The translations under genes were made by a program, and so were the position numbers. Source: Alphaproteobacteria bacterium (GTDB lineage: Bacteria > Pseudomonadota > Alphaproteobacteria > UBA7887). Taken from it: DNA of 64,000 nucleotides. Shown piece after piece: positions 37,645-55,321 of the stretch. The stretch is from assembly GCA_965216755.1 (NCBI GenBank), contig CBDCGL010000011.1:4704001-4768000 (forward strand), written 5' to 3'. Position 1 is the stretch's first letter, and each line of letters starts with the position of its first letter. The notes under the pieces were generated by a model that saw nothing but the letters and a program-made list of their open reading frames with translations, did no database searches and was not told where the DNA came from.

Positions 37645-38883
37645 ATGTTTATCCCTTTTATGCCGCCGACGTTGGCGCAACGTGCCGCAATGGTCGAAGC
37701 ACTTTTGGCGCCACCGGCGCCGATGCTGCCAATGATCACGCCGGATTCGCCGATTGGCCGACCGGCGCAACCGGCAGTTCCGTTTGGGGCACCGTTCGGT
37801 GCCTTCGCGCCAATCGGTCCGGGCACGCCACCAGTATCCGAGAACGCGCACCGGCCGGGACCGTCAGCATTTGCCGGGCCATTATTTGGCGTGCCAATAC
37901 CGACGCCACCGCTGCCTCCGGTCATTCCGTCGCGGCAGGCCATGGTGGAGGCGCTTTTACCCGGGGCCGTCGTGAGCAGCTTCGAAGGCACGCCGACGGC
38001 GCCCGGTGCGCGGGTCGCCCCGGCTTCGCCGCCAAACTCGATGCAGCGCGCCATGGTGGAGGCGCTGTCACCGGATGTCGCCAAGTTCTTTGGATTTTCG
38101 CCGAACGGAGGCCCTGATGGCCCGGGCGCAACGCATCGAACGCCGACGAACCCACGGTTCCTTCCCAATCTCATTCTTGCCTCAGTCGGCCGCGATGAGC
38201 CACCGCCACCACAGAGTGTGGATGTGTTCAGTGATTTGCTTAAGCAAGGTGAGCCGGAGAGGTTATGGCGGGAGCCGTCAAATCCGACGCAACGAGAAAT
38301 CGGAGAGTTCATACTTTCGATCGCCCCGGGGGTCGGCGAGGTGATGTCGGCGATGGAAGCATATGACGCCTATAAAACTGCTTATGCGGCTTTGCAAGAC
38401 GGTGATACCCAGCGCGCTTTGGTTGCGGCGGCAAAGGGCACAACGGCATTGTTTTCGGTCATTCCCGTTTTCGGCCGCACTGTCAAGCTCTCGAAACTGG
38501 GTGTGATCCTCGCGCTGCGGCTCTTCGACCACGCTGACTACAAAGGTCCACAAATCAAGGAGGGGGAGGCGGGTGGCGAAAGTGCGAGCAGAAATTTCCC
38601 AAAAAAGGAAAAAGAGGCGACTAAGGTTCGCGACATTACAAGCACATGCGTATTTTGTCGGCAAGCGGGCGTCGGGGTCCAAGTGGATCATGCCCACCCA
38701 AAAGCGCGCGGCGGCAACGCAACGGAAGCGAACGCACAATTGGCCTGCGCCCATTGCAATCCGTCTAAGCGCGATCGAGACGTGCCTGTCAATCCCCCAC
38801 CCGGATGGCAAGGTGATTGGCCACCATACTGGATTGCAAAATGGCCGGAACTGCGGGGTATAGGTTTGCGGGTCCCGAGGTAA
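37645..38883 (+). CDS. Putative polymorphic toxin 1: Pro-rich N-terminus, helical pre-toxin domain, C-terminal HNH nuclease
   Basis: CVFC...QVDH.HP.ARGG.....NAQLAC.HCN.SK; followed by DUF4265-like genes; start uncertain. Confidence 0.8.
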   Translation: MFIPFMPPTLAQRAAMVEALLAPPAPMLPMITPDSPIGRPAQPAVPFGAPFGAFAPIGPGTPPVSENAHRPGPSAFAGPLFGVPIPTPPLPPVIPSRQAMVEALLPGAVVSSFEGTPTAPGARVAPASPPNSMQRAMVEALSPDVAKFFGFSPNGGPDGPGATHRTPTNPRFLPNLILASVGRDEPPPPQSVDVFSDLLKQGEPERLWREPSNPTQREIGEFILSIAPGVGEVMSAMEAYDAYKTAYAALQDGDTQRALVAAAKGTTALFSVIPVFGRTVKLSKLGVILALRLFDHADYKGPQIKEGEAGGESASRNFPKKEKEATKVRDITSTCVFCRQAGVGVQVDHAHPKARGGNATEANAQLACAHCNPSKRDRDVPVNPPPGWQGDWPPYWIAKWPELRGIGLRVPR

Positions 38884-39117
38884 AATGGAACGGTGCGTCG
38901 TGAGGGTTCGGCACACTGAGGAGAAAATAATTTCTGTGCTGGGTCCTATCTCAATCCATCATTTCAGTTGTTGAGATCGCGCAAGGATTGAATTACTTTG
39001 ATGACAATTCAATCGCTGTCGCGTAGATGTAAATTCAACTGTATCTCGCGAATCAATGATGCGAATAGAATATTTGAGCAAAGAATCCTGTAGAGGATAA
39101 ACAAAAAGGAAATCCGT

Positions 39118-39600
39118 GTGGGAAAATACAAAATATTCGAGCATTCTCTGCCACTGTGGGAAGACAAAGGCACGACCGTCGTCCTCGCTTACGTAACTGA
39201 TGATGAGGACAAGAATGAGTGGGAAGCCCTTTGGGCGCGTCAGATTAGAAAAGATCACTATGAAATTTGCTGTATACCATTCTTTGCCTATAAAATTGCC
39301 TTAGGCGATATTGTCCGGACCAATTCGAGACGGGCCGTGGTGGGCGTCGCTGAGCCTTCTGGTCGGTCCGTGTTTCGGGTCTACTTTAAGCCGGAATTTG
39401 ATGCAAGCACGCGAGAAGCGCGCATTCGAGATGTATTGAACGGTATCGCGGACTTAGGTGGCGAAATGGAATTCTACCATGAGGATCTTCTCGGTATTGA
39501 CGCGAAGAACAAGGATATCGCTAACAAAGTCGTTGAGTTCCTGAAGGAATGGGAAGGTAACACAGAGTTATTATTATACGAGCACGGCAAATATCCATGA
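39118..39600 (+). CDS. DUF4265-like putative immunity protein, copy 1
   Basis: E.LWA.....YEICCIPFFAY.IALGD.V....SGRSVFRV.F; low GC; downstream of the HNH toxin. Confidence 0.75.
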   Translation: MGKYKIFEHSLPLWEDKGTTVVLAYVTDDEDKNEWEALWARQIRKDHYEICCIPFFAYKIALGDIVRTNSRRAVVGVAEPSGRSVFRVYFKPEFDASTREARIRDVLNGIADLGGEMEFYHEDLLGIDAKNKDIANKVVEFLKEWEGNTELLLYEHGKYP

Positions 39601-39870
39601 ATATCAACATCGTGGTCGGGGCCCGATTTCAGCGACTGTTAACCTAATGCATCATACTTCGCAGACTATGTTTTAAAATCACAATTTGTGCGTTTGGTAA
39701 TGTGTCACCGTAATCCAAAGTTTCGCACGTCGAGAAAAGGTGTTTCTGGAGCGGGTCAGGGCGCGGTCTTGCGAACGCCGGGTGTTTGATGCGGTTTACG
39801 TCGACATAGGGCGATAGCGGCACGGTGTTTTTGCAAGAAATCCTGTGGGCATCCAACAAGAGGTTCCCGC

Positions 39871-40353
39871 GTGAAAAAATACAAAATATTTAAGCATTCC
39901 CTGCCATTGTGGCATGACAAAGTCGATTCCTTCATCATGGCTGACGTAACTGATGATGAGGACGAAGATCAGTGGGAGAAGATCTGGACACGTCGCGTTG
40001 AGAAGGAGCGCTATGAAATCTGCTGCATACCATTCTTCACCTATAAAATTGCCTTGGGCGACATCGTCCGTGCAGATTGGATGGGGGCTTTCAGATGGGT
40101 TGTCGAGCCCTCCGGTCGGTCCGTGTTTCGGGTCTATTTTGAGCCGGAATTCGATCCAAGCACGCGAGAAGCGCGCATTCGAGATGTTTTGAACGGTATC
40201 GCTGACTTAGGTGGCGAAATGGAATTCTACAATGAGGACCTCCTCGCTATTGACGCAAAGAACAAGGATATCGCTGACAAAGTCATAGAGTTTCTGAAGG
40301 AATGGGAAGATAATACCGAACTGCTGGAGTATGAGCACGGCAAGTATCCTTGA
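39871..40353 (+). CDS. DUF4265-like putative immunity protein, copy 2
   Basis: About 76% identical to copy 1 by manual count; 753-bp offset. Confidence 0.75.
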   Translation: MKKYKIFKHSLPLWHDKVDSFIMADVTDDEDEDQWEKIWTRRVEKERYEICCIPFFTYKIALGDIVRADWMGAFRWVVEPSGRSVFRVYFEPEFDPSTREARIRDVLNGIADLGGEMEFYNEDLLAIDAKNKDIADKVIEFLKEWEDNTELLEYEHGKYP

Positions 40354-40774: not shown

Positions 40775-41116
40775 ATGGAGCATAATGGCGTGAACCAAAA
40801 TGACGATGGCGAGCAGGGGTTGCGAGACATTGTACGGCGTCACGTTCATGTGGCGGTACGCGCGCTGGTGGCTATTTGCGAAGATGAAAACGTACAAGCA
40901 AGCACCCGAGTGGCGGCGGCGAATGCCGTGTTGGATCGGGCTTATGGTCGGCCGCCACAGGCGGTTGAGGTCCATGGCCACAGGGATGTTGCGGACCTAA
41001 GTGATGGAGAGCTTGCGGCAATCATTCAATCCGAAAGCCATCGCGGCGGCGCGCGAACTGTTGGCAAGGCGGCGGGCAAGAAACGCGTTCGCCGCGTTCG
41101 TCGCTCGCGTGACTGA
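40775..41116 (+). CDS. Probable terminase small subunit
   Basis: AVRALV.I......RVAAANAVLDRAYGRPPQ...LSD.EL..I; overlaps the large terminase start. Confidence 0.7.
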   Translation: MEHNGVNQNDDGEQGLRDIVRRHVHVAVRALVAICEDENVQASTRVAAANAVLDRAYGRPPQAVEVHGHRDVADLSDGELAAIIQSESHRGGARTVGKAAGKKRVRRVRRSRD

Positions 41117-42548
41117 TTTGAAGCCGGCCCGGCACCACAAACGGTTGATCGCGGCTCTGAACGAGATTGCCGATGGGAAACTTCGGCGGTTGATGGTGTT
41201 TATGCCGCCGGGCCATGCGAAGAGCACTTACGCAAGCGTTCTGTTTCCGCCGTGGCACTTGATCCGGCATCCGCAGGCGGCGGTTTTAGCGGCCAGTCAC
41301 AGTCAGGAACTGGCGGACAGTTTTGGGCGGCGCGCGCGCGCGGTTGTCGGGCATGAAGGTTTCGCCGGTGTGTCAGGGACAAAACTGGCCAACGACAATC
41401 GTGCCGCGTCACGATGGCAGACCGATAGCGGCGGCGTCTATTTCGGCATTGGTGTCGGCGGGGCGATCACGGGACGGCGCGCGGATTTGGCGATCATCGA
41501 TGATCCGATCAAGGGACGCGCCGAAGCGGACAGCGCGCTGGTCCGCGACCGGACCTGGGAGTGGTATCGCGCGGACCTGCGGACGCGCCTGAAACCGGGT
41601 GGTGCGCTCGTCCTGATTCAAACGCGATGGCACGAAGACGATCTGGCAGGCCGGATTCTTCCGCAGGAATATAGTGGGGAATCCGGCAGTGTGGTGGCGC
41701 GTGACGGCGAAACTTGGCAGGTCATTAGCCTACCGGCTCTCGCGGAACAGGACGATCCGCTGGGGCGCGCCCCTGGCGAGGCCCTGTGGCCGGAATGGTT
41801 CGATGCTGCGACACTGGAACAAGAAAGGGTCAGCCAAGGGCCGCGCAATTGGTCGGCACTGTACCAGCAACGTCCCGCACCGGAAGAGGGCGATTACTTT
41901 CGTAGCGAGTGGTTGCAGTGGTACCAAGAGCCACCAACGCATTTGGCGATTTATGGCGCCAGCGACTATGCGGTCACGGCCGGTGGTGGCGATTATACCG
42001 TGCACGGCGTCATTGGGGTTGATGCGCTGGATAATCTCTATGTGTTGGATTGGTGGCGCGCTCAAACAGACAGCTTGGTTTGGGTTGAGACCTTGTGCGA
42101 CTTGATTCGGAAATGGCGCCCGATTGAGTGGGTGGAAGAAAAAGGCCCGATCGCAAAAGGGCTGGGCGCGTTGATCGACAAGCGGCAGCACGAACGTGCC
42201 GCATATTGTGTACGCCATGGGTTCGCCTCGTCGGCGGATAAGCCAACCCGGGCCCAGGCTATTCGCGGCCGCATGGCCCAAGGAAAGGTTCATTTCCCCA
42301 GAAAGGCGCCGTGGGTGGCCGACTTGGTGAACGAGTTGATGACGTTTCCGGTTGGCGTTCACGATGATCAAGTCGACGTGATGAGCCTTTTCGGGGTGAT
42401 GCTGTCGCGTATGCACAAGGGCAAGAAGATGCGACGTCCGTCTGACCAAAACATGCAGCGACAACCGACTGTCAGCGAAATATTTGATGAGCATTTTCGG
42501 TCAACCGCGCGGCCGCGGGGCCGGGATCGGCTGGACAGCTGGTCATGA
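41001..42548 (+). CDS. Terminase large subunit
   Basis: Walker A MPPGHAKS, ITGRRADLAIIDDPIKG, IQTRWHEDDLAG, FP.G.HDDQVD. Confidence 0.96.
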   Translation: MMESLRQSFNPKAIAAARELLARRRARNAFAAFVARVTDLKPARHHKRLIAALNEIADGKLRRLMVFMPPGHAKSTYASVLFPPWHLIRHPQAAVLAASHSQELADSFGRRARAVVGHEGFAGVSGTKLANDNRAASRWQTDSGGVYFGIGVGGAITGRRADLAIIDDPIKGRAEADSALVRDRTWEWYRADLRTRLKPGGALVLIQTRWHEDDLAGRILPQEYSGESGSVVARDGETWQVISLPALAEQDDPLGRAPGEALWPEWFDAATLEQERVSQGPRNWSALYQQRPAPEEGDYFRSEWLQWYQEPPTHLAIYGASDYAVTAGGGDYTVHGVIGVDALDNLYVLDWWRAQTDSLVWVETLCDLIRKWRPIEWVEEKGPIAKGLGALIDKRQHERAAYCVRHGFASSADKPTRAQAIRGRMAQGKVHFPRKAPWVADLVNELMTFPVGVHDDQVDVMSLFGVMLSRMHKGKKMRRPSDQNMQRQPTVSEIFDEHFRSTARPRGRDRLDSWS

Positions 42549-42580
42549 GCCGGGCGCACCATCGGCAATAGGATAGGGCA

Positions 42581-44506
42581 ATGACAGGTGATTCAGAGAG
42601 CGCACGCGACTTTTCGTCGGAGGTGCTGCGGTGGAAGCGCGAACTGGAATTGGCGGATCGCGAAGAAAAAGCCTGGCGTGAGCTGGCGCCGAAGATTATC
42701 CGCCGCTATCGCGATGAGCGCAACCGCGCCAGCCATGACCGGAAATTCAATATCTTCTGGTCCAATGTTGAAACCCTGAAACCGGCGGTCTACTCGCATA
42801 CACCCGTACCCGACGTTCGTCGTCGTTTTTTGGATCAGGATCCGATTGGGCGCGAGGCCGCCGAACTGTTGGAGCGCGCGTTGAGCTTCGCCATAGACGA
42901 CTACGATTTCGACGGCGCGATGGAATTGGTGCGGGACGACATGTTGCTGGGTGGCCGGGGCGTCGCGCGCGTGCGCTACGACGCCGATATCGCGCGCCGG
43001 CCCATGGAGATTTCTAGCGAGGAGCAGGGCGCCGCGCACGAAGCTGACGCGCGCGCCATACCAGCGCCGAACGACGCCGCGGATGGTGAAGATGAGAACG
43101 GTCCCTTCGTGGAAGTGGTGACCGATGAGTCCGTGCGTTGCGAATATGTCTATTGGGAACATTTCCGTATGTCACCGGCCCGGACCTGGGCGGATGTACG
43201 GTGGGTCGCCTTTAAGCATTTCATGACCCGTGATCAGTTGCGTCAGATGTGGCCCGACCGCGGATCGAAAGTGCCACTGCACGCGACGACTGATCCGTCT
43301 GACGCGCATGAGTCGCGTGGCGTCGAAAAAGAACCGGACACACCGTTTCGCCGCGCGATCGTGTGGGAGATTTGGGATAAGACCAGCCGCCGGGTGAAGT
43401 GGTGGGCGGAACAAACACCCTGGTTGCTGGAAGACACGCCACCACCACTGGACTTGGTGGCGTTCTTTCCGGTGCCACAGCCGGTCTATGCGGTGCGCAC
43501 CAGCGACAGCATGACGCCTGTGCCGGAGTTCATGATCTACCAAGATCAGGCGGATGAACTGGATCGGTTGACCAGCCGCATTAATCGATTGATCGAATCG
43601 GCAAAAGTGGCCGGAATCTATTCGGCGCGCCAAGAAGAAACCATACGAGCGTTGGCGCACGCGGACGATCTTGACCTCGTGCCGGCGCAAGATTGGTTGG
43701 CGCTGGCCGATCAAGGTGGTGTTTCACGAGCGATCGAATGGTTGCCATTGGATCAGATTGCGACGGTGCTCTCCGGCCTGTATCGCCAGCGCGAGCAGCT
43801 GCGTCAAGAGATCTTCGAACTGACCGGGATCTCTGACTTGTTCCGCGGGTCGAGTCGGCCCGGTGACACTGCGACGGCGCAAAGAATTAAAGGCGATTTC
43901 GGCAGCATGCGTTTGTCACCACGCCAAAAACCGATGGCCCGTTTCGTGCGCGACATTGTCCGGATCAAGGCCGAGATCATTGCTGATCAATTTGCGCCCG
44001 AAACCTTGTCACGCATGACCGGGCGGGTTGTCACCGAGGACATTTTGGCGGTGCTGCGGGATGATCGCCTGCGTCGATTTCGAATTGACATCGAGACAGA
44101 TTCGACCGTGCAGCCGGACGCGGAACGAGAAAGGCAAAACGCAGCAGCGTTCTTGTCGGCAATGACCAGCTATTTGCAGGCCGCAGGGCAGATCGCCAAT
44201 CAAGCCCCGGCGACCGTGCCGATGTTGATGGAGTTACTAAAATTCGGCGTACGTAGTTTCAAAACGGCGCGCGCTGTGGAAGATGTGATCGACGAAACCG
44301 CCGAGGTGTTGAAACAGCAATCGGCGGCGCAAGCTTTGTCTGAAGCGACGCCGCCGGGCGCGATTCAGGAAACCGATTTTGGCGGCCTCGACGCCGCATC
44401 GTTGCTGTCCGCTGTGTCCGCAGCCAATCCACTTGCTGCGCCAGACGACGCACTTGGGACCGCGCGCGCCCCATCCCTCAATGTTGATCACACGGAGCAG
44501 AGATGA
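42581..44506 (+). CDS. Portal protein (podovirus type)
   Basis: 641 aa after the terminase; FNIFWSNVETLKPAVY...P.P.VRRRF.D.DP, TGISDLFRG, FRIDIETDST. Confidence 0.88.
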   Translation: MTGDSESARDFSSEVLRWKRELELADREEKAWRELAPKIIRRYRDERNRASHDRKFNIFWSNVETLKPAVYSHTPVPDVRRRFLDQDPIGREAAELLERALSFAIDDYDFDGAMELVRDDMLLGGRGVARVRYDADIARRPMEISSEEQGAAHEADARAIPAPNDAADGEDENGPFVEVVTDESVRCEYVYWEHFRMSPARTWADVRWVAFKHFMTRDQLRQMWPDRGSKVPLHATTDPSDAHESRGVEKEPDTPFRRAIVWEIWDKTSRRVKWWAEQTPWLLEDTPPPLDLVAFFPVPQPVYAVRTSDSMTPVPEFMIYQDQADELDRLTSRINRLIESAKVAGIYSARQEETIRALAHADDLDLVPAQDWLALADQGGVSRAIEWLPLDQIATVLSGLYRQREQLRQEIFELTGISDLFRGSSRPGDTATAQRIKGDFGSMRLSPRQKPMARFVRDIVRIKAEIIADQFAPETLSRMTGRVVTEDILAVLRDDRLRRFRIDIETDSTVQPDAERERQNAAAFLSAMTSYLQAAGQIANQAPATVPMLMELLKFGVRSFKTARAVEDVIDETAEVLKQQSAAQALSEATPPGAIQETDFGGLDAASLLSAVSAANPLAAPDDALGTARAPSLNVDHTEQR

Positions 44507-45573
44507 CCAATCTTTCGGAAAACCAAGGTCAGGGTGAAGCGCCTTCGATCACCGATGACATCATGGCGGCTATTCGTGAAACCGCGCAGGGCGACGACGT
44601 GAGCCCATCCGATGACCCGCATCCGCCGGGCGACGGCACGCAGCCTGTGCGCAGTGAAGGGGCCGACGAGCTAGCTCCTGAGCAAACAGACTCGCCCAAA
44701 GATGACGGTGATGCTTTCGTGGCGGCACCCGAACATTGGCCGGAAGACGACCGAAAGAGGTTTGAGGCGCTGGGCCACGAGAACCAAGAATGGTGGCTAA
44801 ACAAGACAAAATCCTTGGAGCGCGGCTACCAAGACAAGTTTGAACGATTGGGCGAAGCGCGCCGCGAAAGCGCCGCCCTAAGCGATGCACTGGCTCCATA
44901 CGAAGCGCAATTGGCCCGCGTCGGTCTGGATCGCGTGGGGTTGGTTCAGCAATTGGTTGCCAGCGAGCAAATGCTCAGGACCAATCCGGATGAGGCGCTT
45001 GCATGGCTGGCGCAACTCTATCCACCGCGCGACCGACGCGGGGCTATGCAAAAGATTGCGCGCGCCTTGGGTGCGGACAGCGGCGACGCGACAGGTCAAG
45101 CCGCCGCCACCGAGGCGTCAGCGTCCGAAGATGTTATCAACCAAGTCCGGTCTGAACTCGATCGACATATGCAGCAATTCGCGTCCGCGCAACATTCGGG
45201 ACAGATCGCGGCGATTGCCACGCAGTTTGACTCAATGCGCGCGATGAAAGACGAAGGCGGAAACGAACGGTTTCCACATTTGAACCAGGTCCGCGCGGTT
45301 ATGGCCGCGCTCGTCGCCGCGGGTGCCGCTTACGATCTACCGTCAGCCTATGACATGGCGGTCCGTGCGCAAGGCATCCGCGATACGAAGACAGGGTCTG
45401 ATTACCCGCGCTCCGACGCGCAGCGTCGCCAATCCGTGCAGCAAGCGAAGATTGCGAGCCGCAAACCGCAGACCGATTCGGCACCGGCGCGCAAGGTTAG
45501 TGACGGCCGTGGTCCTGTGTCGATCCAAGACGCGATTCTCGAGTCGATCGAAGAATACCGCGCCGGGCTCTAA
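44503..45573 (+). CDS. Scaffolding protein
   Basis: Acidic low-complexity N-terminus, APEHW, helical; lies between portal and capsid. Confidence 0.75.
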   Translation: MTNLSENQGQGEAPSITDDIMAAIRETAQGDDVSPSDDPHPPGDGTQPVRSEGADELAPEQTDSPKDDGDAFVAAPEHWPEDDRKRFEALGHENQEWWLNKTKSLERGYQDKFERLGEARRESAALSDALAPYEAQLARVGLDRVGLVQQLVASEQMLRTNPDEALAWLAQLYPPRDRRGAMQKIARALGADSGDATGQAAATEASASEDVINQVRSELDRHMQQFASAQHSGQIAAIATQFDSMRAMKDEGGNERFPHLNQVRAVMAALVAAGAAYDLPSAYDMAVRAQGIRDTKTGSDYPRSDAQRRQSVQQAKIASRKPQTDSAPARKVSDGRGPVSIQDAILESIEEYRAGL

Positions 45574-45594
45574 GAAAAATGAGGTAAGAAAAAT

Positions 45595-46569
45595 ATGGCT
45601 CCACCGAATTCGCAATGGGGCGAAGTCGCGACGACGACGCTGCACAAAAGGCGTCGGCGCATGGCAGACAACGTTCTTAACCACAATGCGTTGCTGCGAC
45701 GACTCAAAGAACGTGGCAATGTTGAGCCAGCCGATGGTGGCGAAAGCCTGATCGAAGAGCTCGAATATGCCGAGAACCAGACCTTTATGTACTATTCGGG
45801 CTACGAGGTTCTGGATATCAGCCCGTCTGAGGTTTTCTCGGCCGCGGAGTTCGATTGGAAACAGGCTGCGGTGGTCGTGACGATTTCGGGCGCCGAGCAG
45901 CGCAAGAACTCAGGCGACTCGCAGATGGTCCGGCTGCTTCGGCGTCGGCTTTCCAACGCCGAGAAGACCATGATGAACAATGTCAGTGTCGGCGTCTATT
46001 CGGATGGCACCGGATCTGGCGGCAAGCAGATTGGTGGCTTGCAGTTGTTGGTGGCCGACGACCCGACAACGGGCACTGTCGGTGGCATTGATCGCGCCGC
46101 AAATACGTTCTGGCGGAATGTCAGTTTCGATGCCACCACCGACGGCGGTGCAGCTGCCAGTGCCACCAACATCCAGTCATATATGAACGACGTTTGGATC
46201 CAGTTGGTTCGGGGAACGGATCGTCCCGACATTATCGTTGCGGACCCCAACTATTTCAACTTCTTCTGGGAAAGCCTGCAGGCGATCCAGAGGATTACGA
46301 CACCGCGCAACGGCGATGCCGGGTTCGAGTCATTGACGTTTCATGGGCCGGGCGGATCCGCGCCAGTGTTTCATGATAGTGATTGTCCAGGCAATCACAT
46401 GTATTTCCTCAACACGGAATACATTCACTGGCGCCCGCACAAGGATGCCAACATGACGCCGTTAGAGGCGCGGGAACCGGTCAATCAAGATGCGATTGTC
46501 CGGCCGATAATTTTCATGGGCAACATGACGCTGAGCAATGCTTCGTTGCAAGGCGTCTTGAAAGACTGA
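45595..46569 (+). CDS. Major capsid protein
   Basis: ADNV..HNALL.RL..RG, YSGYE.L, AAEFDWKQAA, YSDGTG.GGKQI.GL, MYFLNT.Y. Confidence 0.9.
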   Translation: MAPPNSQWGEVATTTLHKRRRRMADNVLNHNALLRRLKERGNVEPADGGESLIEELEYAENQTFMYYSGYEVLDISPSEVFSAAEFDWKQAAVVVTISGAEQRKNSGDSQMVRLLRRRLSNAEKTMMNNVSVGVYSDGTGSGGKQIGGLQLLVADDPTTGTVGGIDRAANTFWRNVSFDATTDGGAAASATNIQSYMNDVWIQLVRGTDRPDIIVADPNYFNFFWESLQAIQRITTPRNGDAGFESLTFHGPGGSAPVFHDSDCPGNHMYFLNTEYIHWRPHKDANMTPLEAREPVNQDAIVRPIIFMGNMTLSNASLQGVLKD

Positions 46570-47091: not shown

Positions 47092-47114
47092 TCACCAAGG
47101 CTCACGTGATATCG

Positions 47115-47143: not shown

Positions 47144-47172
47144 GCGGAATCGCGCAACACGCCATTGAAACA

Positions 47173-47835
47173 ATGAGGTGCGATCGAATGGATGTTTCAC
47201 AACAGGATTGGCTCACACTCGCCGAGTCGACCGGCGCGAGCCAAGCTGACGCCGACGGTGTCATGGCCACGTTCTATGACAGGCCCGTCGAAAACAGGGT
47301 CGCGTCGAAGAAAGAGGGACGCCCGATCTACGACTCGAAGACATATGTCATGATTTTGATTCCGGGACAAAGCAAAACGCGCCTGGATCGGCATGTCAAA
47401 CCTGACGATATCGACCGTTGGCCTGACGCCTGGGCGCGATACAGAAAGCGCGAACGTGGCATCGTCAACGGAACACCACTGCACGAATGGTCGTATCTCA
47501 GCGCGACCCGGCTGATGGAACTGAAGGCGCTCAGCATCCTGACTGTCGAGCAATTGGCTGCAGTGAACGACAGCGCACTCGGCAATTTAGGGCCGGATGC
47601 AGCCGATCTTGTCGACCGCGCGCGTCAACATATTCAGGGCGAGGATCAGACCATCAAGGAACTGCGGTCGCGCAACCAAGACCTTGAAGGGCAAGTCAAG
47701 GCCATGGAGGCGGAGATGGCCGAAATGAAACGCGCCATTGCGGCGGGCGAAGTCAAACCCAGCAAGTCCAAGACGCGTCGCCGCAGCAGTGGCGGGACTC
47801 AACAGGACGTGGAAACCAATGCTGGTTCAACTTAA
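47173..47835 (+). CDS. Conserved phage protein
   Basis: FY..PV.N..AS..EGRPIYD, GTPL.EW, I.TVEQLA; C-terminal coiled coil. Confidence 0.7.
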   Translation: MRCDRMDVSQQDWLTLAESTGASQADADGVMATFYDRPVENRVASKKEGRPIYDSKTYVMILIPGQSKTRLDRHVKPDDIDRWPDAWARYRKRERGIVNGTPLHEWSYLSATRLMELKALSILTVEQLAAVNDSALGNLGPDAADLVDRARQHIQGEDQTIKELRSRNQDLEGQVKAMEAEMAEMKRAIAAGEVKPSKSKTRRRSSGGTQQDVETNAGST

Positions 47836-48043
47836 GCCGGTCCTTCTGCGTCCGGGCGAACGGGGGTTGGTTATGTTCCACAACAAGCATCTGCCACATC
47901 TCACCGACCAAGAACTTGACGCCGTGCGCGGGGAACTTCGCGAAATGGCACGCGACAACGATCATCCGTGCGCGTTGACCGCGCGCCGCCTGCTTGGCGG
48001 CGTCGAGGAAACTGTTCGCTTCAATGGGACGTGGGGACGATGA
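47819..48043 (+). CDS. Small hypothetical phage protein
   Basis: Overlaps both neighbours in operon fashion (ATGA overlap with the next gene). Confidence 0.5.
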   Translation: MLVQLKPVLLRPGERGLVMFHNKHLPHLTDQELDAVRGELREMARDNDHPCALTARRLLGGVEETVRFNGTWGR

Positions 48044-48759
48044 GTTTACTCACAATATGTCGTCAGGCAATCGGCGAGATCGGTTCTGTCGAGACACCAG
48101 ACACGATCGTCGGCAACAGCAATGAGACGGCGAAGCAAATTCTTGCCCTGGCGCAACGGGAAGGCCAGGAATTGGCGCGCCGGCACACGTGGTCCGCGCT
48201 GCAACGAGAGCACGTCTTCGCGACCACGTCGGGCGTGGAAAGTTACGCGCTGCCGTCCGATTGGCGACAGGCGATCGATGAAACAGCGTGGGACCGCACC
48301 AACAACCGTCCGATGCCGGGAAGTGTTGGCCCGCGCGCCTGGCAGGTTTGGAAATCCGGCTTGATCGCCACAGCGGATGTTTGGACTCAGTTTCGGGTGA
48401 AATGGGATTCGAGCGCGGGCGCGCGCCGCATTTTTGTCGATCCGGTGCCGAGTAGCGCGAAGACGTTGGTTGTCGAATACCTGTCCCAATCATGGTGTCA
48501 GTCGTCGTCAGGTACGTTGCAAGCCGGCTGGATCGCCGACAGCGACACGGCACTTCTTGACGAAGATCTCATACAGATGGGGCTGATCTGGCGCTTTCTG
48601 AAAGCGAAGGGGTTGCCCTATCAAGAGGAATTCAACAGCTACGAACGATCGGTAGATCGCGCGATCGAGGCCGACGTGCCGTCGCGGCGGATCCGGTTGG
48701 GCGGCCCGCGACGCGGTGAATTGCGAAACCCGAACCTGCCAGATACGGGGTATGGTTGA
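48040..48759 (+). CDS. Head-tail adaptor protein
   Basis: MSLLTIC, W..LQ.E..F.T, Y.LP.D, GL.WRF.KAKGL.Y.EE; position. Confidence 0.75.
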   Translation: MSLLTICRQAIGEIGSVETPDTIVGNSNETAKQILALAQREGQELARRHTWSALQREHVFATTSGVESYALPSDWRQAIDETAWDRTNNRPMPGSVGPRAWQVWKSGLIATADVWTQFRVKWDSSAGARRIFVDPVPSSAKTLVVEYLSQSWCQSSSGTLQAGWIADSDTALLDEDLIQMGLIWRFLKAKGLPYQEEFNSYERSVDRAIEADVPSRRIRLGGPRRGELRNPNLPDTGYG

Positions 48760-50297
48760 TGGTTATGCAGCGCAATCCGTCGCGGCAACGGCAGGCGAAT
48801 GCGACACAGAGCTTGTCGTTTCCGGCGCCAATCGGGGGTTGGAATGCGCGCGACAGTCTGGATCAGATGAAAGAAACCGACGCGGTACGCCTGGAGAATT
48901 GGTTTCCCAATGGCGACCGGGTCAGCGTCCGGCAGGGATTTGCAGAACACGCAACCGGCGTTGGTGCCGGCGAAGTCGAGACCGTCATAGAGTTTGTCGG
49001 TTTGACCAGTCGCAAACTGATTGCCGCCAGCGGGACCAACCTCTACGACGCGACAGCGGCTGGTGCCGCATCGTCGCTGGCCGGGGGGTTTACGTCCGGG
49101 CGCTGGCAGGGCGCCAATTTCGGCAATCGCCTGATTTTGGTCAACGGTGCCGATGCGCCGCAATCATTCGATGGCACAACGATGGCTGCCGCTGGCTTTA
49201 CCGGCCCCACGACGGTGAGCGATCTGATTTACGCGGTGCCATTCAAGGGCCGACTGTATTTCGTCGAAAAGAATACGGGCGATGTTTGGTATGGCGGCAT
49301 TGGCGCGGTCACTGGCGCACTGACCAAGTTCCAATTGAGTCGAGTATTGCGCCGCGGCGGCGAACTGCAGGCGATCGGCGTGTGGTCGCGGGACGCGGGC
49401 GATGGGCTCGACGACTTCATCGTCTTCGTATCGTCGAATGGCGAGGTGTTGGTGTACGGCGGTACGGATCCGGCAACGGATTTCGCCAAAATCGGCAGCT
49501 ATGAAATCGGACGGCCGCTGGGACGACGATGCATGGCGCGCGCCGGTGGCGAACTAATCATTTTGACGCGGGCCGGCTATTTGCCCGTGTCGCTGTTGCT
49601 TCAGGGTGGCACCGCCGACACAATCGACCGTCACCCGGTTTGGGGAAAAGTGCGACCGGCCGCCGCAGACGCGACGGCGATGTTCGAGGCGAATTTCGGT
49701 TGGCAGATTTTTTCCTGCCCGACCGGATGCGCGCTTCACGTCAACATACCGAGCCTGGTGGGCAGCGAGTACAAACAGCATGTGTTGAATACGGTCACGG
49801 GCGCGTGGGCATTGTATTCCGGAGTTCCGGCGCGCGCGTTCGGTGCCTTTGACGGCGACACCTATTTCGGCGGCGGTGATGGGCGCGTCTTCAAGATTGG
49901 TGGCAACACTGACGACGGCGCCGCCATTCGCTTTCGTGCCAAGCAAGCCTTTAGCTATTTGCGAAAACGAACCAGCATCAAGAGATTCACCATGAGCCGC
50001 CCCGTCATTCGCACCGACGGGACCGTGTTGGCGACGGTCGGGTTGGATGTGGATTTCGCCGACCGGAACCTGCCGCAGAACTTGACCAGTTTCGCATCCG
50101 GCGTGGCTGGGTCGGCGTGGGATACCGACGATTGGGATGTCGGTGTCTGGGCGGGGGCCGCCACGCCCGCGTCGACATGGCTATCGACGCCAGCGGTGGG
50201 GCGCAGCGCATCCGTGCGTTTCGAAGGCGAGGCCAACGCGCAGACGCTCGATTGGTACTCCACCGACGTGCTGGCGCAAACGGGTGGCGTTCGGTGA
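48756..50297 (+). CDS. Tail nozzle / DNA stabilisation protein (P22 gp10-like)
   Basis: PAPIGGWNARD, L.NWFP, beta-propeller-like repeats, WD...WD...W tail. Confidence 0.8.
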   Translation: MMVMQRNPSRQRQANATQSLSFPAPIGGWNARDSLDQMKETDAVRLENWFPNGDRVSVRQGFAEHATGVGAGEVETVIEFVGLTSRKLIAASGTNLYDATAAGAASSLAGGFTSGRWQGANFGNRLILVNGADAPQSFDGTTMAAAGFTGPTTVSDLIYAVPFKGRLYFVEKNTGDVWYGGIGAVTGALTKFQLSRVLRRGGELQAIGVWSRDAGDGLDDFIVFVSSNGEVLVYGGTDPATDFAKIGSYEIGRPLGRRCMARAGGELIILTRAGYLPVSLLLQGGTADTIDRHPVWGKVRPAAADATAMFEANFGWQIFSCPTGCALHVNIPSLVGSEYKQHVLNTVTGAWALYSGVPARAFGAFDGDTYFGGGDGRVFKIGGNTDDGAAIRFRAKQAFSYLRKRTSIKRFTMSRPVIRTDGTVLATVGLDVDFADRNLPQNLTSFASGVAGSAWDTDDWDVGVWAGAATPASTWLSTPAVGRSASVRFEGEANAQTLDWYSTDVLAQTGGVR

Positions 50298-50707
50298 ACT
50301 TGGTTGGCGACCTCACGGGCGGGCCGGTATGCCGGTGGATCGAAAGTCAATTGCACGTGGATCTTGGCGAATGCGCGGCCATCGGCGTGGTGCAAGACGA
50401 GGCACTCATTGCTGCGGTCGCGTTCAACAACTACCAGCCGCATATGATCGAGGCCAGCGTGGTTGCGACGACACCGCGCTGGTGCTCGCGGCGTGTTCTG
50501 GCGGCGGTGTTCGCGTATCCGTTTCGGCAATTGGGCGTGCGACGCGTGCAGGCAACGACAGCGCGGCGCAACAAACGGGCGCGGAAATTCATCGAACGAC
50601 TAGGGTTCAAATATGAGGGCATTGCCCGAAAGGGCTGGCCACGCGGTGGCGACGCCGCGGTCTATTCTATGTTGAACAACGAATGTAGGTGGCTAAGAGA
50701 TGGGTAA
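50294..50707 (+). CDS. GNAT-fold phage protein
   Basis: FAYPF.QLG..RV, N.RA..F.ERLGF.YEG; usual slot between nozzle and ejection genes. Confidence 0.8.
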   Translation: MNLVGDLTGGPVCRWIESQLHVDLGECAAIGVVQDEALIAAVAFNNYQPHMIEASVVATTPRWCSRRVLAAVFAYPFRQLGVRRVQATTARRNKRARKFIERLGFKYEGIARKGWPRGGDAAVYSMLNNECRWLRDG

Positions 50708-51572
50708 GGGATCGACCAAGGCGCCACCGGCGCCAAATCCGGATGAATTGATCAAGGCGCAGACGATCGCCAATCAGCGCGCCTTGCGCGATGCGGCACG
50801 GTTCAACCAAGTGGCGGAAGTCACGCCGTTCGGATCGCGCCAGTTTGTTGGTGATATCGGGACCCCCGATCGCACCGCGGTGACCAGTTTGTCACCGTCG
50901 GGTCAACGCCAATTGGAAGCGCGGAACGCATTGGCGGAGGCCCTGTTGGGACTCGCCCAAAGTCGCGCCAGCCAGATTCCGGCGGCACCACTGGACTTTG
51001 CCGGATTGCCGGCGCGGCCCGGTGTCGGGGACTTTGGTGGTGAACGCGATCGATTGGAACAAGCGCAATTTCAGCGGGCGCGCAATTTGATTGATGGTGT
51101 GTTTGCGGACAACGCCGAACGATTGCGTGGCCAACTAACGGCGGCCGGGATTCCGGCGGAGTTTCAGCCCAGCAGAGCAGAAGTGCGCGACTTGAACCGG
51201 CGCCGCGATCAGGCGTTGAGCAATGCCGCGCTGTCGTCAGTTGCGGCGGGCGGGGCGGAGCAATCGCGCCTGTTCGGGTTGGCCGACGCGGCGCGCCGCC
51301 AGGCGATGACCGAAGCGTTGCTGGGGCGTAGCTTGCCCTTTCAAGAGTTGGCCGGATTTGCCGGAGCATTTCCGGTGCAAACGCCGGCATTTCAGCCACT
51401 GGCGCAGTCGGGCCCGTTGTCGATCAATCCATTGCCGGCTTTCCAGATGGACTTCCAGCGCGGTCAAGCAAACGCGCAAAGGGCCGCCAATGCCAACCTG
51501 GCGGGGTTGCAGGCACTCATGCAAGTGTTGGGTACCCCGACTCAGGGCGCGTTCGATCGGATACTGAGTTAG
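50700..51572 (+). CDS. DNA ejection / pilot protein
   Basis: MGKGS..APPAP.P....AQ..AN, TPFGS, TSLSP..Q, AEQSRLFGL; Ala/Gln-rich. Confidence 0.75.
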   Translation: MGKGSTKAPPAPNPDELIKAQTIANQRALRDAARFNQVAEVTPFGSRQFVGDIGTPDRTAVTSLSPSGQRQLEARNALAEALLGLAQSRASQIPAAPLDFAGLPARPGVGDFGGERDRLEQAQFQRARNLIDGVFADNAERLRGQLTAAGIPAEFQPSRAEVRDLNRRRDQALSNAALSSVAAGGAEQSRLFGLADAARRQAMTEALLGRSLPFQELAGFAGAFPVQTPAFQPLAQSGPLSINPLPAFQMDFQRGQANAQRAANANLAGLQALMQVLGTPTQGAFDRILS

Positions 51573-51631: not shown

Positions 51632-52222
51632 TCATTTATCCGAACGGGAAGCACTTTCGATCATGACGGCAGTCAGGAACAAAGCGTCGTCGAAACCGAC
51701 GTAGCGGTGCCTTGAGACCTTTGAGATACGGTAGCAAATGGTATGTCGTAGCAAGGGACCAAAGAAGACGCTGTCATATGTGAATGCGAGGACGAAGGCG
51801 CAGTGGGCGCGTTCGAACGGTTCGCGCGTTTCGACCGGCAGGTCGTCGGCGATCTGACGCAGCTTTCGCCATTCCGGAAAACGATCTTCCCATTTGTCGG
51901 TTGGGATTTTCTTGGCGTGTTTTGGGCGCGCTGGAACAGCGGTCGCGGCCTTTGCCTGAAGACGACCCGTCAAGAGTAATTTGATAAGCGGCCAGAGACT
52001 TGTCGTTTCGTGGCGCACGAGAACCTTTAATCTAGAGCACGCCGAATGCGCTGGGGTGCGGAAATGAGGTCCGTCGTTCAAGCTTCCCTCAGCGCGAAGA
52101 AGGTCGTGCGTCAACTCAGATATGGTTTCCATATCGCACCACCGCGCGCGCATCCACATGCCGGCCAAAACAAGAACAAGGCTAAGGCAAAGTAATGAGA
52201 CAGAAGCAATCACCATTCCCAC
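51632..52222 (-). CDS. Membrane-anchored protein family A, copy 1
   Basis: N-terminal TM; shares REPFERAHCAF...GP.LRHTIC.RISK.SRHRYVGFDDALFL with the ORFs at 52690 and 57301. Confidence 0.7.
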   Translation of the reverse strand: MGMVIASVSLLCLSLVLVLAGMWMRARWCDMETISELTHDLLRAEGSLNDGPHFRTPAHSACSRLKVLVRHETTSLWPLIKLLLTGRLQAKAATAVPARPKHAKKIPTDKWEDRFPEWRKLRQIADDLPVETREPFERAHCAFVLAFTYDSVFFGPLLRHTICYRISKVSRHRYVGFDDALFLTAVMIESASRSDK

Positions 52223-52233
52223 GTCTCCGGCAA

Positions 52234-52503
52234 CTATGCTTCGTTGGTATTGGTATTGCTGGCACTTGCGCTCAGCAATGCTTGACTTTCTCGTTTCTGT
52301 CCTCTTTTCCGTATGACCGCCGCATATCGCCGTTCCCAGGCGCAGGCTGCGTCATCGACGACGATCGTAAAACGCCACATCTCCTTAATGAACCGGGTGA
52401 GCGCAGCGACAAAAAGCACGATTGAGACGACTAAGAAGAGATAGCTGGAATAGAAGGCTTGCAACCAATGTACGACGAACATCCAAGATTGTTCGAAAAA
52501 CAT
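52234..52503 (-). CDS. Small membrane protein family B, copy 1
   Basis: MFFEQSW..VHWLQAFYSSYLFLVVS; paralogous to the ORFs at 53334 and 57897; start chosen from the paralog alignment. Confidence 0.6.
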   Translation of the reverse strand: MFFEQSWMFVVHWLQAFYSSYLFLVVSIVLFVAALTRFIKEMWRFTIVVDDAACAWERRYAAVIRKRGQKRESQALLSASASNTNTNEA

Positions 52504-52689
52504 TCTTTCACCTAAGGCACACGTGAAGTTATCGGAGGCACCTAAGAGAATACGCTCCCAACGTACCCGAAAAAACGACTGGTGCATAGGCCCTCGGGAT
52601 GCCGGGGCGCCCCTGTCGGCGCAATGGTAACTTCTCGCATGGCGGCACATAGCCAGACACAGGATAAAATGATCCACCATTCGGTGCTG

Positions 52690-53274
52690 TCATTTATCCG
52701 AACGGGAAACACTTTCGATTATGATGGCCGTGAGGAACAAGGCGTCGTCGAAACCGACGTAGCGATGTCTAGAGACCTTTGAGATGCGGTAGCAAATGGT
52801 ATGTCGTAGCAAGGGACCGAGGAGAACGCTGTCGTAGGTTAGTGCGAGGAGGAAGGCGCAATGGGCGCGTTCGAACGGTTCGCGAATATCGTCGGAAAGG
52901 TCGTCGGCGATTTGACGCAGCTTCCGCCACTCCGGAAAACGATCTTCCCATTTGTCGGTGGGGATTTTCTTGGCGTGTTTTGGGCGCGCCGGAACAGCGG
53001 TCGCGGCCTTTGCCCGAAGACGACCCGTCAGGAGTAATTTGATAAGCGGCCAGAGACTCGTCGTCTCATAGGATACGAGAAACGTCAATTTAAAGCACGC
53101 CGTTTCCGCTGGGCTACCGAAATGAGGTCCGTCAATCAAGTTCCCCTCGGCACGAAACACGTCATGTTGCAACTCGGATTGGAATCCGAAATCGCGCGAC
53201 TTTGCGTGCGCCCACATGCCCGCCAGAATAAGAAAGAGGCTAAGGTAGAGTAATGATAGTGAGGCAATCACCAT
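52690..53274 (-). CDS. Membrane-anchored protein family A, copy 2
   Basis: Near-identical C-terminal two thirds to copy 1; 1058-bp offset. Confidence 0.7.
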   Translation of the reverse strand: MVIASLSLLYLSLFLILAGMWAHAKSRDFGFQSELQHDVFRAEGNLIDGPHFGSPAETACFKLTFLVSYETTSLWPLIKLLLTGRLRAKAATAVPARPKHAKKIPTDKWEDRFPEWRKLRQIADDLSDDIREPFERAHCAFLLALTYDSVLLGPLLRHTICYRISKVSRHRYVGFDDALFLTAIIIESVSRSDK

Positions 53275-53333
53275 CGCCCGGTCTCCGATCGATGAGGCAT
53301 GTTTGTGCTGCCGGATGCGCTTGTTCGACCAGC

Positions 53334-53555
53334 TTAGAATTCACGTTTCTGACGCCCCTTCCGCAGGATCGCGTCGTCTCGTCGCTCGCAGGCGCAAACC
53401 GCCTGTTCTAGAGAAAATACGAGACGTCGGATTTTCTTGATGAATTGGGTCAGTGCCGAGACAAAAAGCAAGATTGAGACGACTAAGAAGAGATAGCTGG
53501 AATAGAAGGCGTGCAACCAATGTACGACGATCATCCAAGCTTGTTCGAAAAGCAT
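53334..53555 (-). CDS. Small membrane protein family B, copy 2
   Basis: GGAG RBS, MLFEQAW..VHWLHAFYSSYLFLVVS. Confidence 0.6.
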   Translation of the reverse strand: MLFEQAWMIVVHWLHAFYSSYLFLVVSILLFVSALTQFIKKIRRLVFSLEQAVCACERRDDAILRKGRQKREF

Positions 53556-53698
53556 TTGTTCTCCTAATTTTCCCGTGAAGTTATCGGGGGCACCTAAGAG
53601 AATACGCTCCCAACATACCCGAAAAAACGACTGATGCATAGGCCCTCGGTGTGCCGAGATGCCGCTATGCGTGTGGGCAAAAAGACGGAATCGCAACA

Positions 53699-55321
53699 AT
53701 GTTTCCTATCGCACGTCGACCCCTTGGCCGAATTGACGACCAATGGGATAGGTATCGCCAGGTGGTTAACGCTCTTGGCCCAAGTCGACTTGGGCAAACA
53801 GGTTTACCCGCGCAACCGAGTTTCCCCACCGAATTGCCGACACCGCCGGTGTTTGAGCCTTGGTTGGAAATGCTGGCGGTATTACCCGATTATTCGAACC
53901 CCGCGGTGCGCCGCGCCGCGGTCGAGGTGTTGATGGGTGCCGCACCCGCACAGGTTCCATCTCGTGAACCCGTTCGCCCGCCAATAATACCACCGCTTGG
54001 GGTCCCGGGCGTGCCGTTCGTCGATCCCCTCGGATTGGATCGTCAGCACATGGTGCCAGACAAAAAACTATTCGGGTTGCCGGTGCCACAACCGAAATTC
54101 AGCCGCGAACCGGTTCCCCCATCTCACCCAATCGGGACCCTTTCCGCGCCTCGCCAAGCGGGTTTGAGGACCGCGGCGCAAATGGGCACCGTGACCTCAG
54201 CATTTGGAGATCCACGCCAGACGCAACCGGACTTCTCACCACTGCATCGAGTCGCCGCCGTTTTTGCCGACGGCGAAGGGCGCGAGGCGGACAGCACTGG
54301 CCCGAACGAGCTCAGCAATGATGCGCTGACGCGGCTTGACGCGATTGAGTCAGCGGTGGCCGCGTTTGAAGCGGTCGCCCACACAGGTTTGATCGACGAG
54401 GGCGGCGCGGCGCTGATTGGCGCCGAACCACCGGCGGACGTGGTGCAGGCAGTGGGTGAGCTTGTTCTCTCCCTGCTGCCGGGCACCGGAGAGCTGTTGT
54501 CTGCCCGTGATGCCTATCAGGCGTTCCTAGCCGCTGATGCGGCACTCGACAATGACGAAGTTTTCGAGGCAATACAAAAGATTGCCGAGGGTACGTTCCA
54601 CACCCTTGGTGCAATGCCGGTCGTTGGCGTGGGTGTGCGGCTCACGCGCACAGCCGCCAAAGGCGCAATGCATCTGCAAAATAAGCTCAACGTGCGGCGG
54701 TGGATGCGACGGCGCCTTGTCGACAAACACGCGGTCATAACGCGCCATAGCAACGACGAAAAGTTTACCGAATGGGTGAAGGCTGTGCGCAGTGGTAAGG
54801 TCAATAAGACCCGATCGGTAGTGTGGGTCGCAAGCATCGACGACGATGTCGAGTTTGCAATCAGGACCGCCCTGAGGACCAAATTGCCCCTTGGCGGTAT
54901 CTTGATGTCCGACCGGGAAATCGGCCATATCTTCCGAGATGCCAAACGCGCAATGGTCGAGCCCGAGATCATCGAGAACTTGCGACGCCATATGCGTGAA
55001 CCGGCGATGATTTTGTTGGAAAGAAATCCGAAGTCTATTGGAAACACGTCTAAAGAAAACACGGTGCTGTTTGTTTTGGATTTGGGGAAGAATGATAACG
55101 CCGACGCGCTAGTCAAAGTCGCCGTGAAAGTTGATTTCGAGCTCAAGAAATTCGGCCTGGACCCGAGGACAGCCACGACACAGAGCAAGGCTGACGCCAC
55201 TGAAAAACGACGAGTCCGCACAATTTTGACGCCCTTTATCAGGACTGCGGGAACAGTGTCAGAAGCGCAACTCAACAACCCAAACAACTACATAAAAATC
55301 TACGAAAAGAAAAAGAAGTAA
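53699..55321 (+). CDS. Putative polymorphic toxin 2: Pro-rich N-terminus, same pre-toxin domain, C-terminal PBECR/MuF-tip-like nuclease
   Basis: 26/65 identity with the toxin 1 middle domain; Lys-rich tip with SD....H..R..K ... P..ILL ... VK.AV.V ... IRTAG.V pattern; occupies the ejection-protein slot. Confidence 0.65.
   Translation: MFPIARRPLGRIDDQWDRYRQVVNALGPSRLGQTGLPAQPSFPTELPTPPVFEPWLEMLAVLPDYSNPAVRRAAVEVLMGAAPAQVPSREPVRPPIIPPLGVPGVPFVDPLGLDRQHMVPDKKLFGLPVPQPKFSREPVPPSHPIGTLSAPRQAGLRTAAQMGTVTSAFGDPRQTQPDFSPLHRVAAVFADGEGREADSTGPNELSNDALTRLDAIESAVAAFEAVAHTGLIDEGGAALIGAEPPADVVQAVGELVLSLLPGTGELLSARDAYQAFLAADAALDNDEVFEAIQKIAEGTFHTLGAMPVVGVGVRLTRTAAKGAMHLQNKLNVRRWMRRRLVDKHAVITRHSNDEKFTEWVKAVRSGKVNKTRSVVWVASIDDDVEFAIRTALRTKLPLGGILMSDREIGHIFRDAKRAMVEPEIIENLRRHMREPAMILLERNPKSIGNTSKENTVLFVLDLGKNDNADALVKVAVKVDFELKKFGLDPRTATTQSKADATEKRRVRTILTPFIRTAGTVSEAQLNNPNNYIKIYEKKKK

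Follow-up and report, generated by a model that had tools for sequence, protein, structure and literature searches.

The stretch of DNA analysed here (hereafter the window) comprises 64,000 nucleotides of a 4.85-Mb contig (CBDCGL010000011.1, positions 4,704,001 to 4,768,000) in the 5.0-Mb genome of an Alphaproteobacteria bacterium of the lineage UBA7887, and contains a podovirus-like prophage encoding two putative toxins, toxin 1 and toxin 2, and a virion protein, P0002. Judging from the sequences, a helix of the toxins matches the N-terminal helix of EP2, the name given here to the protein encoded after the P0002 homologue in related uncultured phages, and this match is the new result of the present work. 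Our best explanation, a tentative one, is that this short helix serves for docking and lets the toxins travel as ejection proteins, being packaged in the particle and then injected.

The shared motif in the genome

The earlier note on this DNA had claimed that a motif, R-x-A-[ML]-x-E-A-L, is shared by both toxins and by P0002, which it called the ejection protein, and had taken it for a signal that loads cargo into the capsid. All six of the sites it listed are in frame on the + strand. Toxin 1 has RAAMVEALL (copy 1, 37681..37707), RQAMVEALL (copy 2, 37933..37959) and QRAMVEALS (copy 3, 38044..38070); P0002 has RNALAEALLG (motif 1, 50922..50951) and RRQAMTEALLG (motif 2, 51294..51326); toxin 2 has RRAAVEVLMG (53909..53938). 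Genome-wide pattern counts and profile scans agree that the motif is specifically common to these three proteins. Within the window, six-frame translation gives four matches to the strict pattern and six to a loose one, all within toxin 1, toxin 2 and P0002. Among the genome's 10,031,224 six-frame residues, R.A[ML].EAL matches seven times and A[ML].EALL five times, and in each case four of the matches belong to toxin 1 and P0002. Widening the pattern to R.A[AMLV].E[AV]L[LM] so that it admits toxin 2, a post hoc choice, gave five genome-wide matches (a count only); five of the known sites, two in toxin 1, two in P0002 and one in toxin 2, fit it by inspection.

In a genome-wide scan with a BLOSUM profile made from the four toxin copies alone, the best site outside the seeds was motif 2 of P0002 (rank 5) and the third-best was motif 1 (rank 7). 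Conversely, when only the four copies of P0002 and its paralogue P0005 were used as seeds, copies 2 and 1 of toxin 1 came out at ranks 6 and 16. The toxins were missed by a 13-column family profile of motif 2. Chance as the origin of the motif is ruled out by the genome-wide pattern counts and the seeded profile ranks. The DNA of the motif copies uses different synonymous codons, and an identical 17-nt core occurs only between copies 2 and 3 of toxin 1; since the copies differ at synonymous sites, the peptide is conserved and not a DNA repeat, and a recent DNA repeat as the origin of the motif is ruled out by the same differences.

The description of the toxin 1 copies as helical islands holds in the AlphaFold2 model, which gives them as helices 10–21 (in a block with pLDDT of about 90), 97–103 and 132–140, separated within residues 1–190 by long stretches with pLDDT <50. 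Both copies in P0002 (model mean pLDDT 81) are predicted inside long helices, motif 1 in helix 66–92 and motif 2 in helix 156–223. The toxin 2 copy is indeed the weaker one, as had been said, scoring <9 bits with the EP2-derived profile described below. Toxin 2 also reads KRAMVEPE in its C-terminal domain (window 54941, residue ~431), which has RAMVE in common with copy 3 of toxin 1; at rank 274 in the toxin-seeded scan, this is likely a chance resemblance.

The helix of EP2 in related phages

IMG/VR contains 196 relatives of P0002; the comparisons of viral loci use 80 loci kept from these. EP2 (about 400 aa) is followed in two of these phages (loci L029 and L036) by EP3 (phrog_5880, about 640 aa). 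The PHROG names of EP2 are 'released from the phage upon host infection' and 'endolysin', and two of the 14 EP2 proteins tested have an SLT (lytic transglycosylase) domain, so that EP2 resembles, by its sequence, an internal or ejected protein of the ejection type.

The 56 ORFs (open reading frames) directly downstream of P0002 homologues in the IMG/VR loci were taken as EP2 candidates. Fifteen of them, three clearly belonging to another enzyme family, failed on visual inspection to align in the block and were set aside; the other 41 have the N-terminal block [DP]-R-x-x-[LIM]-A-[QE]-A-L-[ML]-x-x-G-x-S-T-A-P-V followed by a Gly-rich helix. Examples of the helix are RRRAMAEALMK, RRQMAQALMS and RTKIAQALMQ. 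A hidden Markov model (HMM) of this N-terminus, built from the 41 viral sequences and none from this genome, had as its top match among the 46,010 ORFs of the genome P0043 (E 1.8e-4), a 418-aa protein encoded after P0005 on another contig, C3. P0043 has several further motif-like islands between Pro-containing linkers.

A profile of EP2 helix 1 (nine columns, from 35 unique peptides of other phages) was scanned over the ~10 million positions of the genome. P0043 ranked 2nd, copies 2, 3 and 1 of toxin 1 ranked 34th, 75th and 85th, and the two P0002 copies ranked 216th and 233rd. By arithmetic on these ranks, three top-85 matches would be expected in one 412-residue protein about 0.0035 times. 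The strict pattern R-x-A-[ML]-x-E-A-L, which was fixed before the viral loci were scanned, has only three matches in their 1,238,816 residues: two in the EP2 proteins of two similar loci, at residue 31 in both, and one antisense. The antisense frame of the P0002-homologue gene reads R..LAEALL in three loci (L059 ~10717, L061 ~1755 and L063 ~10717, - strand), which is probably a coincidence of codon symmetry in GC-rich sequence and the source of one strict match.

The toxins and their pre-toxin domain

Toxin 1 (37645..38883, + strand) has 412 aa from an ATG at 37645, in agreement with a 412-aa database record, the ORF being open from a TTG at 37603. It consists of a disordered Pro-rich N-terminus with the three motif copies, a helical domain (38281..38529; domain HMM E 8.2e-30, pLDDT 88–98), here called the pre-toxin domain, and a C-terminal HNH nuclease, the putative toxic domain (PF01844, E 2.1e-7, aa 349–391 of the ORF, above the Pfam cut-off). 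Toxin 2 is putative (53651..55321, + strand; domain HMM E 2.6e-30) and starts at a GTG at 53651 or an ATG at 53699. Its Pro-rich N-terminus, with one weak motif copy, is followed by a pre-toxin domain (54443–54679) and a C-terminus without an assigned family, for which a MuF_C match (E 0.051) and Atlas leads at 0.80–0.82, PBECR among them, are below any threshold. The two toxins have about 100 residues in common (31% identity, E 5e-10).

An exhaustive HMMER search with residues 15–320 of toxin 1 found 29 proteins at E<=0.001, namely toxin 1 itself, one 4318-aa protein with 31 matched stretches, and 27 homologues, which match toxin 1 in a central domain of ~80 aa alone (signature LPG.GE..SA.DAY.AF.AA..AL..GD...GAIP..G). 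On either side of this domain the homologues have N-terminal parts of 0–655 residues, two of them starting with PG_binding_1, and C-terminal parts of 29–257 residues, which include PBECR1, ART, Endonuclea_NS_2, GIY-YIG and LPD3 (some of these matches being below the Pfam cut-off); 18 of the 27 have no family match at all. Because the homologues keep only the central domain while their C-termini vary, the architecture is that of polymorphic toxins, and on this sequence evidence toxins 1 and 2 are classed as members of such a family, with a constant pre-toxin domain and variable C-termini.

The pre-toxin domain has no match in Pfam, PHROGs or NCBIfam. The stretch 'LPGTGE' is reminiscent of the pre-toxin TG domain (PT-TG), but Pfam scans of the central domains at E<=10 gave no match to PT-TG. 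A VIA-align structure search with the toxin 1 model found only generic helical hairpins (Z<=7.4), NCBIfam gave nothing for the toxins beyond HNH similarity, a word-based protein search with residues 1–300 of toxin 1 recovered toxin 1 alone, and a tblastn search of 50,697 phage records with both pre-toxin domains and P0002 found no match.

The domain is present in nine of 401 sampled genomes of the class, this genome included. The contexts were read in six of the eight other genomes: four are ordinary chromosomal loci, one adjoins terminase and GTA_holin_3TM genes, and one (G389) was left unclassified. In one chromosomal locus (G095) the relative is flanked by four SUKH genes. In the one with the holin gene (G149, contig C3 of that genome, locus L021 9151–15691), two toxins of the family lie directly downstream of GTA_holin_3TM and terminase genes, which hints at holin- or lysis-linked release in that lineage. 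Two copies of the pre-toxin domain in one locus are seen in several genomes (G095, G149 and G389).

Two genes downstream of toxin 1, at 39118..39600 (PF14085, E 1.1e-21) and 39871..40353 (PF14085, E 1.2e-21) on the + strand, encode DUF4265 proteins, which from their position are putative immunity proteins 1 and 2 for toxin 1. For toxin 2, no convincing candidate immunity gene was recognised directly downstream (55321–55972, ~650 bp); the only ORF noted in these 650 bp encodes 116 aa with a hydrophobic tail (55594–55944).

P0002 and the EP2/EP3 slot

P0002 (290 aa, 50700..51572, + strand) is the first virion protein after the nozzle position and belongs to phrog_6121, 'virion structural protein' (E 8.8e-12). 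It contains long predicted helices, and its paralogue on contig C3, P0005 (62–64% identical), also has two helices that look like the motif. Contig C3 (24.5 kb) carries a second, related podovirus virion module, with the genes for terminase, a 1050-aa tail-like ORF, portal, capsid, adaptor, nozzle-position protein, GNAT, P0005 and the EP2-like P0043; the pre-toxin domain was looked for on this contig and not found. The gene order around P0002 is also seen in C3, L029 and L036, with GNAT matched in C3 and L029 only: in L029 and L036 the order is adaptor, nozzle-position protein, GNAT (L029 only), P0002 homologue, EP2, EP3 and fibre. Because of this order in its relatives, P0002 would be the first gene of an ejection block like those of T7 and P22. 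The label 'ejection protein' of the earlier note thus draws on synteny and the PHROG name, and on no other basis. Of 77 members of the P0002 family, 33 have at their C-terminus a Peptidase_S74 chaperone domain, a feature of trimeric fibres, so that the role of P0002 may differ from that of ejection proteins.

In 80 unique sequences of the family, the core of motif 2 is well kept (R199 in 58, a hydrophobic residue at 203 in ~69, E205 in 74 of 80), whereas the tail 'A-L-L' is kept in only 19, 17 and 13; motif 1 is poorly conserved. Prophage relatives from the same class are closer, e.g., RQNALQEALA and RATAIQEALL. A Foldseek search of the PDB with the P0002 model gave nothing at E<=0.001, and a search of genome contigs for related loci, made with P0002 alone, found none. 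A complex prediction of P0002 with residues 1–160 of toxin 1, run without controls, returned 'no answer', its score being 0.00 where the mark was 0.32.

A GNAT acyltransferase gene (phrog_4470, 50117..50707, + strand) lies directly upstream of the P0002-family gene in a conserved position and overlaps it (window 50700–50710), as also in L001 4993–5478 (C3) and L029 3991–4449. Proteins of the P0002 family start with M-G/S-K, M1 and K3 being invariant in nine sequences; together, the GNAT gene and this start could mean that the virion protein is acylated at its N-terminus.

The EP2/EP3 slot of the window's prophage is occupied by toxin 2 and by three opposite-strand genes (51632..53274, - strand; 196, 148 and 194 aa) that break the late operon between P0002 and toxin 2 and have no family match in Pfam, PHROGs or NCBIfam. 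Toxin 1 lies outside this slot, upstream of the terminase. The EP2 N-terminal HMM has no match in the window's prophage, nor does phrog_5880 (EP3), whose sole match in the genome is a weak one on C3 (E 0.002).

Docking as a proposed means of loading the toxins

We infer binding, packaging, injection and immunity as the steps of the proposed mechanism. The helix, short and amphipathic with the register R-x-x-hydrophobic-x-E/Q-A-L-L/M, is the conserved N-terminal element of EP2 in these podoviruses. On their disordered Pro-rich tethers, the helices of the toxins would dock to the assembly partner of the EP2 N-terminus. The toxins would then enter the particle alongside the ejection proteins and be injected from it together with the DNA, and the DUF4265 proteins would protect lysogens. 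Precedents are the capsid targeting sequence of T4 and the MuF toxins, both compared below. The reading as a loading signal is partly and indirectly supported: it gains from the finding that the same helix pattern is the N-terminal element of EP2 in 41 of 56 loci, and from the place of a toxin in the EP2/EP3 slot; it loses in that the sharing with the P0002-type ejection protein, on which the earlier note had built, is confined to this genome in a comparison with 35 other phages.

There, the EP2 helix is no closer to the P0002-type helices of its own phage than to those of other phages (own mean 1.5 vs cross mean 1.6, SD 5.4; permutation p 0.53 and 0.41); the corresponding scores are 36 and 28 in the window and 25 and 21 on C3. 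Because of this, the sharing of the helix with a P0002-type protein is peculiar to this genome. Similarly, 64 viral loci were tested for motifs that the P0002 homologue has in common with the remaining proteins of its locus, and none was comparable to the window: the score ratio reached 0.69 at most (median 0.44), as against ~0.76 (hand calculation) in the window, reached three times in toxin 1.

Besides the missing within-phage likeness, several results weigh against loading by docking. Since neither EP2 nor EP3 is recognisable in it, the prophage may be defective. In the 80 viral loci that encode a P0002 homologue, the toxin domain does not occur. Among the 401 genomes, 14 have P0002 homologues and nine the toxin domain, the overlap being this genome only, and outside this genome no relative has both toxin and motif. 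The motif is found in none of the 27 pre-toxin homologues, and the EP2 N-terminal domain in none of the scanned proteins of the toxin family. Neither toxin is matched by the EP2 N-terminal HMM at E<=10, only the 9-residue helix being alike, and BLAST of the toxins against P0043 is not significant (E 0.4–1). Four of the six relatives read are in non-phage chromosomal loci, one with SUKH immunity genes; these contexts, together with the N-terminal PG_binding_1 domains, mean that the toxin family does not depend on capsids. Finally, an HNH nuclease carried in the particle would put at risk the DNA of the phage itself as well as any new lysogen.

An extended form of the docking explanation, which we consider doubtful, is that this portable helix of ~10 residues is a general ticket to the ejection compartment of a large group of uncultured podoviruses with SU10-type capsids, that whatever protein bears it is packaged and injected, and that the prophage has swapped its ejection proteins for toxins, so that its particle is a toxin injector. 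That such a particle could be re-loaded with new cargo, as the earlier note had it, is speculation.

Alternative explanations

The same non-phage contexts and PG_binding_1 N-termini keep alive another explanation, to which we give a modest chance: the helix may be an entry epitope that acts after release. The toxins would be soluble and colicin-like, freed by lysis of the prophage's host, and would bind an envelope or periplasmic factor of the target that the EP2 N-terminus and P0002 also bind while crossing the envelope. The layout of toxin 1 (disordered N-terminus, helical middle, HNH DNase, immunity-like genes) is parallel to that of nuclease bacteriocins, and a lysis cassette is present in the same element. 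In the family, one pair of relatives adjoins the GTA_holin_3TM gene, and of the proteins with PG_binding_1 N-termini, one (L010) shows by eye no obvious signal peptide, as in holin-dependent wall proteins. Moreover, the two phage elements of this one host have the same version of the motif and other phages a different one, which fits adaptation to a host factor. However, this explanation names no host partner, the motif is unlike TonB-box or TolB-box peptides, and neither toxin has a recognisable receptor-binding domain. A role inside the virion fits at least as well with a helix that stands at the EP2 N-terminus across phages with presumably different hosts.

It is unlikely, in our estimation, that the helix is a remnant of recombination, in which toxin cassettes joined genes of the EP2/EP1 type, whose N-termini are now decayed leftovers with the helix kept or duplicated by chance or for the sake of folding or solubility. 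Toxin 2 is exactly at the EP2/EP3 position of relatives, the islands and Pro-containing linkers of P0043 have the same layout as the toxin 1 N-terminus, and the 17-nt core of copies 2 and 3 suggests local duplication. Recombination of C-terminal cassettes is reportedly the known mode of evolution in polymorphic toxins (PMC3482391), and this counts for a remnant as well. However, copies 1 and 2 of toxin 1 differ at about five synonymous positions and yet keep eight of nine residues, and the linkers between the copies have no similarity; therefore, it is the helix itself, in its three copies, that seems to be under selection. In addition, toxin 1 is not in the EP2 slot.

Very improbable, finally, is a site for a maturation protease that cuts after hydrophobic-x-E as in proheads of the T4 type, with the toxins and P0002 processed in the head: M-V-E, L-A-E and M-T-E fit the (L/I)-x-E rule of T4, whose internal proteins combine a targeting peptide with a protease cleavage site, but Pfam and PHROGs give no protease family in the virion module (an absence in scans that is not proof), a scaffold-like acidic helical protein is encoded between portal and capsid, the SU10-type capsid having a separate scaffold-like gene upstream, and the sites in P0002 are inside long, confidently predicted helices.

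The prophage and its gene order

According to the Pfam and PHROG scans, the prophage extends on the + strand from ~36.8 kb to >61 kb of the window, downstream of a host carboxyltransferase gene (33.6–35.2 kb). It starts with a DUF6362/HTH gene, toxin 1, the two DUF4265 genes, a gene for a 183-aa protein, the large terminase and a P22-type portal. These are followed by the scaffold-like protein, an SU10-type capsid, small proteins, an SU10-type adaptor, phrog_5107, GNAT and P0002, and then by the three opposite-strand genes, toxin 2, a fibre-like protein, a transglycosylase-type endolysin and a spanin. The virion genes from the large terminase to the nozzle position (large terminase, portal, scaffold-like protein, SU10-type capsid, small proteins, SU10-type adaptor and phrog_5107) span 41001..50297 on the + strand, the acidic helical scaffold-like protein between portal and capsid being at 44503–45573 (+ strand). 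The fibre-like virion protein (phrog_13989 / phrog_14820) is at 55972..57177 on the same strand. Both toxins are within the virion module, on the strand of the late genes.

The G+C content is 0.52–0.54 at window 38000–40000 and 52000–54000, as compared with 0.58–0.61 in the flanking virion genes. The stretches of low G+C correspond to the toxin 1 C-terminus with the immunity region and to the block upstream of toxin 2, which is consistent with imported cassettes.

Comparison with known systems

The capsid targeting sequence of T4 is a peptide of ~10 residues on diverse internal proteins (IPI-III and Alt) that suffices to load foreign proteins, and cargo bearing it is injected with the DNA (PMC3012670). 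Like that sequence, the helix described here is a short peptide common to otherwise unrelated proteins, although its role in loading is our inference. The T4 sequence is a single N-terminal copy that is cut by the prohead protease and binds the scaffold core, whereas here one to three internal copies lie in a disordered tract of proteins of a small podovirus in which no protease family was found.

Temperate phages encode MuF polymorphic toxins, which have been proposed to be carried by the particle (PMC5576092), and Bxa is described as a prophage toxin with two immunity proteins (PMC11699363). As with the MuF toxins, the toxins of the window are encoded by a prophage and have a variable C-terminal toxin and, at toxin 1, adjacent putative immunity genes. 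However, the MuF toxins are fusions to a whole head-morphogenesis domain, while here there are a helix of 9–10 residues and a different pre-toxin domain; a MuF (SPP1 gp7-like) N-domain was found in neither toxin (Pfam E<=0.01, PHROGs E<=0.001). PBECR1 and LPD3 domains are reportedly typical of the polyvalent proteins of phages, which are injected, and of conjugative elements. Homologues of the pre-toxin domain likewise end in PBECR1 and LPD3, but the toxins of the window, small proteins of two or three modules, differ from the multi-domain giants among the polyvalent proteins.

Nuclease colicins and S-type pyocins have a disordered N-terminus with binding epitopes, a helical middle and an HNH DNase, are accompanied by an immunity gene and are released by lysis. 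The layout of toxin 1 is parallel to this, the immunity candidates here being DUF4265 proteins. There is no Pfam or NCBIfam match to colicin or pyocin translocation or receptor domains or to Im-type immunity, and, unlike in colicins, the epitope of the toxins has a counterpart in ejection-type proteins of phages.

In T7, the block of ejection genes comes after the nozzle/tail-hub gene, and one of its products has a lytic transglycosylase domain. As in T7 and P22, the related phages have a gene block after the nozzle, one member type of which has a lytic transglycosylase domain; however, no sequence or fold match to the ejection proteins of T7 and P22 was found (Pfam, PHROGs and Foldseek). The latter proteins (T7 gp14–gp16; P22 gp7, gp20 and gp16) are packed in the head and form a conduit across the envelope (PMC8402733). 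A search of the literature outside subscription journals on polymorphic toxins with ejection or internal virion proteins turned up no such motif.

Implications

The findings extend two known kinds of system, phage-borne polymorphic toxins and the loading of phage cargo by peptide tags. The pre-toxin domain family, without a match in Pfam, is defined here in nine of the 401 sampled genomes of the class. If the docking explanation is wrong, the motif is still a lineage-specific convergence of three or four proteins in two phages of one host. If it is true, temperate phages would have a second route, besides MuF fusions, for the delivery of polymorphic toxins. Outside T4, we know of little about how podoviruses choose the proteins that are packed beside their DNA, and a short transferable helix common to ejection proteins and toxins would, if the explanation holds, be a directly testable loading code in a widespread group of phages.

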